A stretch of 64,000 nt of DNA from Escherichia phage Eryne. The position numbers were made by a program, and so were the translations under genes. This document shows positions 25,370 through 42,155 of the stretch, piece after piece. The notes under the pieces were generated by a model that was not told the origin of the DNA, ran no database searches, and saw nothing but the letters and a program-made list of their open reading frames with translations. The stretch lies in the sequence record PQ529420, one strand, 5' to 3'. Positions within the stretch are counted from its first letter, which is position 1; every line of letters starts with the position of its first letter.

Positions 25370-26530
25370 TTAGTAAGAACGACCACCAAACACATACTCT
25401 GTGTAGTTTTTACGTTCTTTGTTTTTAATAACAACTTCAATGTTGTTACCTTTATCATCGGTGAACATAAAGTGATAACCGTCACCACCCATTGTACGAA
25501 TGTGTTTTTCATCATACGTTAGCAAGATACGGTCTACACCCCAGTAGTAGTCACCTTCTTCATCTTTATCTTCTACAGTAACGATCCCTTCCATTTCAGG
25601 AAGATGCTCTTCTCCTGACTTATGATCTACAGCTACAACATAACGATTACCGCTAAACAAACCTTGTGCTGTCATACCGTCAATATCGGTATCTGACGAA
25701 ACATCTCCTGTACGATCTACACCGTTAACTTTCAGAAGTTTAACTTCTTTTGCAGCATAGCGGTGTTCAGTAATACTGATACCCATTAATGCAAGTGCAT
25801 CAGAGAATTTGTCATTAGGGTAACGGTTAAGTTCTTCTACTAATGACTGAACAATATCAAAGTTCAAATCCACGGAGAGATTATAAAGCGTTTCAAAATC
25901 TGGTAAGAAGGCTTTGTTCTCCAGATTTTTAGCCAGATAATCATCCATAGTAGCTTTAGGTAGTTTCTTATAGCTAAAACTGTAGAAAATACGGCTAGGA
26001 CGATTACGCAAAAATTCTGATACATAACCATCATTTTTAGTCAATACAAACAGTTTGTCGTAGCCACCAACACCATCCAGCAGGGTAAGCAAACCATCTT
26101 GTGCATCTTTTTCAGCATACAGTTTATCAAATTCATCGATCATAATCATCACAGGTTGTGTGATTTTAGACATAAAGTTGATAAAGCCTTCACCATTAAA
26201 AGCACTACCGATAGAAATAGTAGGAATACCCATTTCACGAAGAGCAGAAGACAGCATTTTAGCTTGCAAAGTTTTACCGCTACCTTTCGTACCCTCAAGG
26301 AGAACACCTGTGTTTTTACCTTTGCGGCTAAGGAACGTCTTGATAATACGTTCTGATTTATCATCAGTATCACCGTATGTTACTGAAGGGACTTCCATAT
26401 CGTTTTTAGGATACAGGAAGAACTCGCCACTTTGAGTAACACCTACACCAAAAGTTCCTGCTGGAATTTCTTCAATATCTGTACCAGACTTCTGACGCAG
26501 GAAGATTTGATTGCCGAATACTGTAAACAT
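25370..26530 (-). CDS. P-loop AAA-type ATPase (paralog of 41028-42155)
   Basis: 386 aa; Walker A GTKGSGKT, Walker B IMIDEFD; extended similarity to ORF 41028-42155. Confidence 0.6.
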   Translation of the reverse strand: MFTVFGNQIFLRQKSGTDIEEIPAGTFGVGVTQSGEFFLYPKNDMEVPSVTYGDTDDKSERIIKTFLSRKGKNTGVLLEGTKGSGKTLQAKMLSSALREMGIPTISIGSAFNGEGFINFMSKITQPVMIMIDEFDKLYAEKDAQDGLLTLLDGVGGYDKLFVLTKNDGYVSEFLRNRPSRIFYSFSYKKLPKATMDDYLAKNLENKAFLPDFETLYNLSVDLNFDIVQSLVEELNRYPNDKFSDALALMGISITEHRYAAKEVKLLKVNGVDRTGDVSSDTDIDGMTAQGLFSGNRYVVAVDHKSGEEHLPEMEGIVTVEDKDEEGDYYWGVDRILLTYDEKHIRTMGGDGYHFMFTDDKGNNIEVVIKNKERKNYTEYVFGGRSY

Positions 26531-26550
26531 AGTTTTCTCCTCTATTTAAT

Positions 26551-27021
26551 TTAGTCAGATTCCCAAATGTTGTCTTTCTTAACCCACATTCGTTGATTAT
26601 CTGAACCTCTATAACGTTTCGTTGTTGGTTGATTCATATCATACTTACCATCTATCACTATGTCAACCAGTTTTTTAATTTTTTCTGGAATTTCTTCAAA
26701 AAGATATCCTGTATATAAAACAATATCTTTTTTGTTTCCAAAACAATCTCTTACCTTCTCAAGAACATACTCTACAGTATCAATGTTCTCTTTGTCAAGA
26801 GGTTCACCACCTAAAACTGTTAATCCTTTAATGAAAGGTCGAGATAAATCTTTCAAGATAAGATCTAATGTTTCAGCAGTGAACTCTTGTCCGTAGTTAT
26901 ACGACCAGGCTTTCTGGTTAAAGCAGCCACGGCAACCGTGGCTACAACCGCTCACCCACAAAGAGCATCTTACACCGTCACCGTTGAGCATGTCAACAGG
27001 TTCATATCCGGCGTAATTCAA
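26551..27021 (-). CDS. nrdG: anaerobic ribonucleotide reductase activating protein (radical SAM)
   Basis: 156 aa; CSHGCRGC radical-SAM cluster motif; overlaps nrdD start. Confidence 0.85.
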   Translation of the reverse strand: MNYAGYEPVDMLNGDGVRCSLWVSGCSHGCRGCFNQKAWSYNYGQEFTAETLDLILKDLSRPFIKGLTVLGGEPLDKENIDTVEYVLEKVRDCFGNKKDIVLYTGYLFEEIPEKIKKLVDIVIDGKYDMNQPTTKRYRGSDNQRMWVKKDNIWESD

Positions 27022-40578: not shown

Positions 40579-41016
40579 ATGAGTAAAACAAACGCAATCG
40601 CAGATAAAGCAACGGATGTACTTCTGAACATGGTTAACGTCACTATTCAAACAATGAGTGATGTTGTGGAGTTTGGAAAACAACAAATTCCAGAAGTAAT
40701 CCATCAATTGTTAGTGTGGAAAGCAGTATCCGCAGGTTTATGGCAACTTTTTAGTATTTGCTTTATGTTTATTACTTTTATTGCTGTGCGGAACCTCGTA
40801 AAAGCAATTAAAGATAAAGAATGCCTGTGGTCACGAGATCGCTATGGTGAAGTATCTGCTTTACCTATTGTTGGCCTTGTTGTCTGTGCTTTCTTTTTCT
40901 TTTTAGGACTTGTTATTTTCTTTTCGAATTTTGATTGGCTAAAAATCATTATTGCACCAAAAGTGTATCTGATTGAATTTGCTGCTGATTTAATTCGTTC
41001 ATCTCAACAAAAATAA
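40579..41016 (+). CDS. integral membrane protein
   Basis: 145 aa, several predicted TM helices. Confidence 0.5.
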   Translation: MSKTNAIADKATDVLLNMVNVTIQTMSDVVEFGKQQIPEVIHQLLVWKAVSAGLWQLFSICFMFITFIAVRNLVKAIKDKECLWSRDRYGEVSALPIVGLVVCAFFFFLGLVIFFSNFDWLKIIIAPKVYLIEFAADLIRSSQQK

Positions 41017-41027
41017 AAGGGGTTAAA

Positions 41028-42155
41028 ATGAAATACACGATTTATGGTGATATTGTAAGTGTAAATAAAGATATGGGCGTGGAATCTAACTATCTTCCAC
41101 CTGGATTCTATACTGTTAGTCGTGATCCCCTTGGCAATTATTTTTTAAGCCGTGGTAATCTGACAGGTGTACCGGATGTTCTGTATGGTGAAACAGAAAA
41201 ACGAGCAAATCACGTTATCCGTACATTCCATCGCCGGAGTGCACAAGGTAAAAACACAGGCTTGCTTCTGACAGGAACTAAGGGTAGTGGTAAAACTATG
41301 TTAGCCAAACTCATTAGTCGTGACCTTGTAGAAGAAGGTGTTCCAACTATTATGGTTACTCAAGCCTACAGTGATGCTAATTTCATTGAACTTATTAGCA
41401 AAATTACCGACAAAGCAGTGATTATTTTTGACGAGTTTGATAAAGTATATGAGAAGAAACAAGATCAAGAAGCACTTCTCACTTTGTTAGATGGTACTGG
41501 CAGTGGTAATAAACTGTTTATTCTGACTAAAAACAGTGGCTTTATCTCTGAATTCTTTTTAAATCGTCCTAGTCGTGTGTTTTATAATTTTAATTATGAT
41601 AAAATCTCACTAGAAACTATGATGGACTATTTAGATAAAAACCTGGATAACAAAGCACACTTTGATAATTTCCAAAGACTTTGGGATGTAAGTTTAGAGT
41701 TGTCCTTTGATGTGATCCAAGGTATAGTAGAAGAACTTAATTTCTATCCTGATTTATCCTTTAAAGAATGCATCTCTATGATGGGCGTTTCTTTGGGTGG
41801 TGGTAATAAATGGGATATCAGCAGCGTTGTTATTAATGGAAAACTTCAGAAAGTTAGCTGGGTATCTAGTTGGCATAACTTTACACCTGCAATCTTTTTA
41901 GGTGGTTCGTGCACACTAGACGTGTACTTGTCATCTCCAAGTGATGCAGACTCTAAAGAAGCCCTTGCTAATAGCTCTTACGTGGTTTTTGATGATGAAG
42001 GCGATGCTCGAATTCCATTGAATGCGACAAAAATGAAAGCAGATCTTATCACAGGCGGTAAAATCGTTGTGTTTAGTGATGATCCAGAAGATTCTTTCCG
42101 TATTGTTCTGGAACCAACTATCACCAATGGTGCAACTTTGGCAAGTGTGTTTTAA
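41028..42155 (+). CDS. P-loop AAA-type ATPase (paralog of 25370-26530)
   Basis: 375 aa; Walker A GTKGSGKT, Walker B IIFDEFD; long collinear similarity to the minus-strand ATPase. Confidence 0.6.
   Translation: MKYTIYGDIVSVNKDMGVESNYLPPGFYTVSRDPLGNYFLSRGNLTGVPDVLYGETEKRANHVIRTFHRRSAQGKNTGLLLTGTKGSGKTMLAKLISRDLVEEGVPTIMVTQAYSDANFIELISKITDKAVIIFDEFDKVYEKKQDQEALLTLLDGTGSGNKLFILTKNSGFISEFFLNRPSRVFYNFNYDKISLETMMDYLDKNLDNKAHFDNFQRLWDVSLELSFDVIQGIVEELNFYPDLSFKECISMMGVSLGGGNKWDISSVVINGKLQKVSWVSSWHNFTPAIFLGGSCTLDVYLSSPSDADSKEALANSSYVVFDDEGDARIPLNATKMKADLITGGKIVVFSDDPEDSFRIVLEPTITNGATLASVF

Follow-up and report, generated by a model that had tools for sequence, protein, structure and literature searches.

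Escherichia phage Eryne (sequence record PQ529420) carries, within the stretch of 64,000 nucleotides that was analysed here and is referred to below as the window, two open reading frames (ORFs) on opposite strands whose products resemble one another as P-loop ATPases. The locus raises the question of how the two genes, called copy A and copy B in what follows, came to reside 14.5 kb apart in one genome, and whether their products do different work. An earlier note, made from the sequence, had proposed a duplication within the genome followed by divergence to two specialised functions. The reading favoured here, to which we assign somewhat better than even chances, is that A and B are anciently separated paralogues which would act as ATP-driven remodelling rings with different clients.

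Architecture and protein class of the two copies

The coordinates and strands that the earlier note gave for the two ORFs agree exactly with the ORF list and its translations. In a BLASTP comparison of A with B, 118 of 254 aligned positions are identical (46%, with 70% positives, 2 gaps and an E value of 2e-81), and residues 2-253 of A are paired with residues 3-256 of B, which comprise an N-terminal beta-domain, the AAA core and the helical lid. Since the match spans all three of these regions, the similarity is not limited to the generic Walker motifs. The statement that the proteins align over most of their length holds for about 66% of it and does not extend to the C-terminal 117-133 aa, which do not align directly; at the level of DNA there is no similarity, cross-hits between the copies being absent in blastn at 1e-20. 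The Walker A motif GTKGSGKT occupies residues 80-87 of A and 83-90 of B, and DEFDK, LLTLLDG, LTKN and NRPSR are likewise common to both, as had been noticed. The pattern [IM]IDEFDK that had been quoted for Walker B does not fit copy B, which reads IFDEFDK, and the spacing that had been quoted after LLTLLDG is one position off for copy B, which reads LLTLLDGTGSGNKLF.

The C-terminal tails of A and B are 13% identical, and their direct comparison with hhalign is at the margin of significance (E 0.003, over 101 collinear columns). Both tails can be linked to a third set of sequences, the 368-aa “M” group, which is matched by the A tail with 95.6% probability (E 1e-8) and by the B tail with 91.7% probability (E 8e-7), and intermediate database sequences align over their full length to A and to B. 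The two tails appear to be homologous, a relationship which is seen by transitivity only. The profile of the family PHROG 2376, moreover, matches each protein from end to end (residues 1-376 of A against profile positions 2-359 of 363, E 3.5e-104; residues 1-367 of B against positions 1-357, E 1.9e-107). Because of these matches, and because the tails are bridged by the M group, the unit of paralogy is the whole three-domain protein.

A full-length AlphaFold model of B (a monomer prediction, with a predicted local distance difference test score, pLDDT, of 90.6) contains a five-strand beta-domain at residues 1-45, an alpha/beta AAA core with its lid at residues 56-252, and a beta-rich C-terminal domain at residues 262-363. 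Residues P24, L40, Y53 and G54 of the N-terminal region are conserved throughout the family. Evolution is much more rapid in the tail than in the core: orthologues share 43-59% identity in the former versus 82-87% in the latter. When a model of the tail alone (pLDDT 86.9) is compared with viral predicted structures, it matches only the C-termini of PHROG 2376 ATPases in distant phages (an Erwinia jumbo phage, with a template-modelling score of 0.67, Salmonella SE131 and Proteus P59). Fold and sequence searches with the isolated C-terminal tail and N-terminal domain returned no significant match outside the family, and the N-terminal domain has no sequence relative in the PDB.

The motor itself is readily classified. 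PF00004 is the sole Pfam family above threshold in either protein (29.4 bits for A and 39.1 bits for B, against a cutoff of 21.2), and a search of PDB sequences with the family profile places p97/Cdc48-D2, VAT, NVL, AFG2 and Rix7 at the top (E of about 1e-12), which assigns the proteins to the classic clade of AAA ATPases. Walker A, Walker B ((I/F)DEFDK) and the sensor-1 asparagine are invariant in A, B and 91 family members. The arginines R180 and R183 (B numbering) of the second region of homology (SRH) do not vary across the family and correspond to the RPGR of p97 in the alignment; in classic AAA proteins the SRH arginines act across the subunit interfaces of the ring. The phage proteins thus resemble Cdc48/p97 (D2), VAT, NVL/Rix7 and AFG2 in Walker A and B, the LLTxxDG helix, the sensor-1 asparagine and the two-arginine SRH, and copy A and most of the family share in addition the aromatic-x-Gly-acidic pore loop 1 of these proteins, from which clade B differs by lacking the glycine. 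They are unlike the p97 types in that they contain only one AAA module, flanked by N- and C-terminal domains that are unrelated; their pore-loop-2 region is shorter, and the identity in structural alignments is 14-19%. The bacterial Trip13/Pch2 (PDB 6p8v) of the cyclic-oligonucleotide-based antiphage signalling system (CBASS) is no more similar than many other classic AAA proteins: identity is 12%, the N-terminal domain is different, and neither a HORMA nor a CD-NTase partner is encoded close by. Among the PADLOC defence models the best match is mad8 (E 4e-4), in the P-loop region only.

The pore loop provides a second point of difference between the copies. The consensus of pore loop 1 in the family is P-[W/F/Y]-x-G-[D/E], the aromatic residue being present in 52 and the glycine in 60 of 67 outgroup members; it is the loop with which classic AAA proteins grip their substrates. 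Copy A has A-F-N-G-E, which is canonical for the family, while copy B has Y-S-D-A, and aspartate replaces glycine in 13 of 14 members of clade B. The M group has Y/F-x-D-A, as clade B does. Apart from the tail, pore loop 1 is where A and B diverge most clearly.

The names given to A and B in deposited records (“ATPase”, “putative ATPase or Zn metalloprotease”, “FtsH-like protease” and “hypothetical protein”) include some that imply a quite different identity. Several GenBank records would make them FtsH-like Zn metalloproteases, an identity that is suggested by these labels and by the presence of FtsH-family chains among the generic AAA matches, but that we regard as having almost no chance of being correct. 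The HExxH motif is absent from both proteins, Pfam detects no peptidase domain (Peptidase_M41) in either, and neither has a transmembrane segment (Kyte-Doolittle means over 19 residues peak at about 1.0, away from the N terminus); what follows the lid is a beta-domain of 120 aa which matches no known fold. Because both HExxH and a transmembrane segment are absent, the protease annotations are unsupported.

A further proposal concerns the “BCS1 orthologs” of jumbo phages, which have been suggested to translocate folded proteins at the membrane while virions are assembled (Iyer et al. 2021, PMC7824862). These were given without accessions, and may or may not belong to PHROG 2376. Bcs1 ranks at about 60 when the family profile is searched against the PDB (E 1.2e-7), and the Pfam domain BCS1_N has no match in A or B at E <= 1. 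In comparison with mitochondrial Bcs1, the phage proteins lack both the transmembrane anchor and the Bcs1_N domain and carry an extra C-terminal domain. The N-terminal features that define Bcs1 are absent and the two proteins are not demonstrably Bcs1, so that a role as its phage orthologues in virion assembly seems very improbable.

A somewhat less remote reading, though still quite improbable in our judgement, is that the proteins are AAA+ loaders or regulators of replication, of the DnaC/IstB/Hda or clamp-loader type, acting on DNA or on the replisome. There are weak matches to clamp-loader and DnaC-like PHROG families (E 1e-8 to 2e-6) and weak NCBIfam matches to Hda, IstB and RuvB; the family members P0112 and P0118 are named “DNA replication protein” in the database; and the crAss-like homologue cr56_1 is flanked by genes for a Holliday-junction resolvase on one side and for Mre11/Cas4-like nucleases on the other. 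The NCBIfam scores, however, are all far below their cutoffs (30.3 bits versus 194.8 for Hda, 19.7 versus 200 for IstB and 27.6 versus 189 for PRK08116), and the PHROG matches of this type are very weak beside the 1e-107 reached with PHROG 2376.

Distribution, age and origin of the pair

PHROG 2376 comprises 3,329 cluster representatives (at 50% identity) in an exhaustive profile search at E <= 1e-30, nearly all of them 350-400 aa in length and matched from end to end, whereas a prokaryotic scan of one genome per species (185,579 species) yields only 40 loci, mostly on contigs of metagenome-assembled genomes; the family is therefore large and essentially viral. It is found in phages of Gram-negative and Gram-positive hosts, in jumbo phages and in crAss-like phages, and phi92 gp190 and gp221 belong to it as A and B do, with no differences. 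In a tblastn search of 50,697 phage records the family occurs in 302, usually at one place in each, and two places per record are found in Justusliebigvirus, in Klebsiella phage KP13-26 and in Lactobacillus phage SAC12B.

Over the 18 kb that span both ORFs, the window is 97-99% identical to phi92-like myophages of E. coli (Justusliebigvirus, Stephanstirmvirinae). Copies A and B are 98-99% identical to phi92 gp190 and gp221 respectively, and copy A is 98-100% identical among Justusliebigviruses. More distant genomes that hold both genes are KP13-26, in which A is 71% and B 76% identical to the window, and scaffold_69 from ENA, a 151-kb metagenomic relative in which A (67%) and B (65%) occupy the same slots on opposite strands, separated by about 15 kb, and are as diverged from the window as is the B of Phapecoctavirus. 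Since scaffold_69 has both copies at that divergence, the pair is old, and it is older than the split between Justusliebigvirus, the KP13-26 lineage and scaffold_69.

The two genes differ in how regularly they are retained. In Phapecoctavirus, Tr1, PsgM04F, KP13-26 and scaffold_69 alike, a B-type gene has this same place, behind a series of small ORFs that lies downstream of a divergent intergenic region; no Stephanstirmvirinae genome examined lacks B, and the placing of it in an accessory island by the earlier note does not stand. Copy A is a discrete gene which is either present or absent. Its slot, upstream of an ORF of 63-67 aa and a block of HAD, ComF-like phosphoribosyltransferase (PRTase), Macro and TerC genes, is fixed in Justusliebigvirus, KP13-26-like phages and scaffold_69. 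Phapecoctavirus and Tr1 have B only, and Phapecoctavirus ESCO13 is collinear with the window with A cleanly missing between nrdG and the small ORF. The simplest reading is that A was lost in Phapecoctavirus and Tr1.

A phylogeny that included homologues from other phages was computed by neighbour joining with bootstrapping on 249 core columns. Clades A and M each receive 100% support, clade B 98% and A+M 72%, but the monophyly of A+M+B receives only 47%. In the core, moreover, A is as close to its homologue in the Serratia jumbo phage BF (47.2% identity) as it is to B (46.8%). Because of this weak support and this equal nearness, a duplication within the genome, as the earlier note had envisaged it, is not demonstrated, and the pair in any case predates the split of the three lineages. 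Most likely the split between A and B took place by duplication in an ancestor of the phage group; the data accommodate the capture of a divergent homologue from another phage almost as well.

Under capture, A would have come from another phage lineage and been inserted between nrdG and the small ORF, so that A and B would be xenologues; this concerns the origin of the pair alone, and we hold it to be possible and on balance doubtful. Besides the figures just given, it would account for the clean presence or absence of A in an otherwise collinear region, for the retention of the ancestral pore loop in A and its loss in B, and for the position of the M group, the closest relative of A, in a rearranged genome. 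The point estimate of the tree is nevertheless that A+M is sister to P0030+B, with the homologues of jumbo phages and Grimontviridae outside; the divergence between lineages is similar for A and for B, both in KP13-26 and in scaffold_69, as expected of long co-residence; and no A-type gene was found outside Stephanstirmvirinae-like genomes.

Two divergent family members within one genome are also seen in Lactobacillus phage SAC12B (Herelleviridae; locus L098), whose copies at 19941-21095 and 24203-25303 are 35% identical over 268 aa, and one of which is closer to homologues in Bacillus and Lactococcus phages than to its own partner. Unlike the pair in the window, these two genes share a strand and are separated by 3 kb, and they represent an independent event in an unrelated lineage. 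Diverged paralogues are common in large phages, and A and B are an ordinary retained pair of ancient paralogues of a large phage rather than the product of a recent duplication.

Proposed mechanism and the evidence that bears on it

On the reading of A and B as anciently separated paralogues with different clients, each copy would assemble into a ring that uses ATP to remodel or unfold a client protein, as its classic AAA motifs suggest. The force would be supplied by the conserved motor, and the choice of client would be made by the fast-evolving terminal domains, the C-terminal tail above all. With its ancestral gripping pore loop (P/A-aromatic-x-G-E), A would most likely thread a polypeptide, and B, in which Asp-Ala stands in place of Gly-Glu, may engage its client differently, so that A would be the more canonical threading enzyme and B the derived one. 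The clients of the two would be different, and both copies would act in the auxiliary phase of infection that precedes assembly.

Both genes are under strong purifying selection: the ratio of nonsynonymous to synonymous polymorphism (pN/pS) among Justusliebigviruses is 0.025-0.076 for A and 0.022-0.046 for B. This selection, the divergence of the tails and of the pore loop, and the retention of both copies together in three lineages fit non-redundant roles, and to this extent the idea of two specialised functions finds support; the duplication step that had been attached to it is not.

Several observations weigh against this account. Ring formation, ATPase activity and the threading of a client are inferred from motifs only. 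Throughout the family, about 12 residues are missing relative to p97 in the segment from Walker B to LLTLLDG. Pore loop 2 is reduced as a result, which is not typical of processive unfoldases. The M group shares the change from glycine to aspartate in the pore loop with B and yet groups with A, and the monophyly of A+M+B is itself poorly supported, as described above. Literature searches found no function for any member of PHROG 2376, a survey of neighbours at 80 IMG/VR loci found no conserved operon partner that would name a client, and a scan for promoters and terminators that might indicate timing performed at chance, with 27 found versus 30 expected.

A and B might instead be subunits of one hetero-oligomeric ring, comparable to Pex1/Pex6 or Rpt1-6, with the gripping pore loops contributed by A. 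In favour of this, A-type genes are seen only alongside B (in Justusliebigvirus, KP13-26 and scaffold_69). The motor motifs and the SRH interface motifs are kept in both copies, and the pore loops are complementary. Shared history alone could explain the co-occurrence, however, and B stands alone in Phapecoctavirus and Tr1, while the two genes lie far apart on opposite strands in different transcription units. A common ring seems unlikely to us.

It may also be that PHROG 2376 proteins are client-specific disassembly machines for host takeover or counter-defence, directed for example at immune or stress complexes of the host; the analogy is with Trip13, which dismantles HORMA complexes, and we judge this distinctly unlikely. 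If it were true, the rapidly evolving C-terminal domain would be the means of target recognition in an arms race, and phages with two copies, such as those with A and B or SAC12B, would neutralise two host targets or would form a hetero-ring in which only A grips.

Gene neighbourhood and implications for the family

The positions of the domains and motifs discussed above, and of the genes that adjoin the two copies, are collected in Table 1.

Table 1. Features of the two ATPase genes and of their surroundings, in window coordinates
Feature	Coordinates	Strand	Remarks
Copy A (386 aa + stop)	25370..26530	minus	phi92 gp190 orthologue; PHROG 2376 AAA+ ATPase
A, N-terminal small beta-domain (aa 1-51)	26378..26530	minus	ends at family-invariant YG; aligned to B model, strands 3-43
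A, AAA core + lid (aa 52-253)	25772..26377	minus	motif positions and conservation
A, Walker A	26270-26293	minus	
A, pore loop 1 (AFNGE)	26189-26203	minus	
A, Walker B (DEFDK)	26123-26137	minus	
A, sensor-1 (LTKN)	26033-26044	minus	
A, SRH (NRPSR)	25991-26005	minus	
A, C-terminal family-specific beta-domain (aa 254-386)	25373..25771	minus	fast-evolving; linked via M group
Copy B (375 aa + stop)	41028..42155	plus	phi92 gp221 orthologue; PHROG 2376 AAA+ ATPase
B, N-terminal beta-domain (aa 1-52)	41028..41183	plus	five strands; model secondary structure
B, AAA core + lid (aa 53-256)	41184..41795	plus	
B, Walker A	41274-41297	plus	
B, derived pore loop 1 (AYSDA)	41364-41378	plus	
B, Walker B	41430-41444	plus	
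B, sensor-1	41523-41534	plus	
B, SRH (NRPSR)	41562-41576	plus	
B, C-terminal beta-rich domain (aa 257-375)	41796..42152	plus	unclassified fold
nrdG (Fer4_12 + Radical_SAM)	26551-27021	minus	upstream of A; context only
nrdD	27018-28817	minus	upstream of A, with nrdG (26551..28817); context only
CapR-repeat / treble-clef Zn-finger / T5orf172 gene	42230..43423	plus	Pfam CapR x4, DUF4379, T5orf172; downstream of B; context only

The gene nrdG abuts copy A, as the description of A as next to nrdDG had implied. As a functional link, the adjacency was rejected: A occurs without nrdDG in KP13-26-like phages, in Phapecoctavirus it is A that is lacking and nrdDG that is there, and since the genes are present or absent independently, their adjacency carries no functional weight. 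Two features of the genes in this region may be recorded alongside. In the window nrdD is a single ORF of 599 aa, which the phi92 annotation treats as split or spliced, and the UvrD-type helicase at 31154-32929 (minus strand; 591 aa) has no intein, while phi92 and PaulScherrer have an intein-containing gene of 2775 bp.

The gene downstream of B was likewise considered as a partner and rejected. It encodes a protein of the CapR/T5orf172 type, which is the homing-endonuclease family of the ICP1/PLE work (PMC8096241, PMC10448857). Justusliebigvirus and Phapecoctavirus carry it, whereas Tr1, KP13-26 and scaffold_69 lack it at this site. Its flanking genes are 98-99% identical to those of phi92, yet the gene itself shares only 65% identity with the phi92 allele. 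This patchy presence, and a sequence so divergent beside nearly unchanged flanks, identify it as a mobile cassette rather than a partner of B. A NADAR gene follows B in three lineages and does not in three others. Immediately upstream of copy B in the window is a 145-aa gene (PHROG 3054; 40579-41016), of which the M-type metagenomic phage has a tandem duplicate (L005, 15766-16233 and 16272-16673) with no ATPase after it.

At the 80 IMG/VR loci the commonest neighbours of the family are Macro, NamPT, NMNAT-Nudix, metallophosphoesterase and rIIA-like genes. A partnership with a module of NAD or ADP-ribose metabolism was nevertheless rejected, in that the signal after dereplication comes from about two lineages (19 of 80 loci) and Phapecoctavirus keeps the HAD-PRTase-Macro block without A; the recurrence of NAD genes near the family is treated as shared placement in an auxiliary region rather than as a functional partnership. 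Genes for tRNAs lie within 6 kb of a family ATPase at 20 of 60 loci, and in several unrelated lineages (loci L032, L037, L061, L075, L086, L008 and L091) the ATPase gene abuts or lies inside a same-strand array of 10-26 tRNAs. In Proteus phage Privateer the family gene comes after RtcB, and in a crAss-like phage it is found among recombination genes. These contexts point to the auxiliary or early region of large phages and name no client. ARAGORN finds no tRNA in the 64-kb window, to which the association with tRNA arrays does not extend, and for this reason the “hypothetical tRNA” that the phi92 record (L001, 3803-3890) places inside gp190 on the opposite strand is probably an annotation artefact.

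Some further observations concern the same regions and their relatives. The HAD hydrolase / ComF-like PRTase (PF15610) / Macro / TerC block at 21212-24980 (minus strand) is conserved across Stephanstirmvirinae, and its PRTase-HAD pair is also found in large phages of Rhizobium, Caulobacter, Brevundimonas and Xanthomonas; the block may represent an uncharacterised nucleotide or ADP-ribose pathway. Its Macro protein (22747-23580, minus strand) and a 316-aa protein (28907-29857, minus strand; “ribonucleotide reductase”, PHROG 15930) match the same ORF of L005 (8586-9389) over about 78 aa, with 34% and 32% identity respectively, which suggests that they may share an N-terminal domain and constitute a second paralogy within the genome. 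In KP13-26 (L004, 7328-9520), NadR-like and PnuC-like genes, a combination known as the two-gene NAD+-restoring system NARP3 (PMC13464706), lie about 8 kb upstream of its copy A. Finally, four records that are near-identical to or collinear with Stephanstirmvirinae of E. coli (MG065650, MG065689, OR584014 and OK210077) are labelled as Campylobacter phages B15 and A110a, Pseudomonas phage PsgM04F and Serratia phage KKP_3264, and these host labels may be due to contamination or mis-assignment.

Dozens of deposited genomes already label the two genes “ATPase”, and the existence of the pair is in itself unsurprising. The analysis corrects the annotation, in that the proteins are not FtsH-like proteases, and it locates the C-terminal tail and the pore loop as the sites at which A and B differ. 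Phages with A and B and phages with B only, whose genomes are otherwise collinear, provide a natural experiment for the identification of clients. The greater value lies in the family, which is large, nearly all viral and uniform in its three-domain build, and whose terminal domains have no known relatives.

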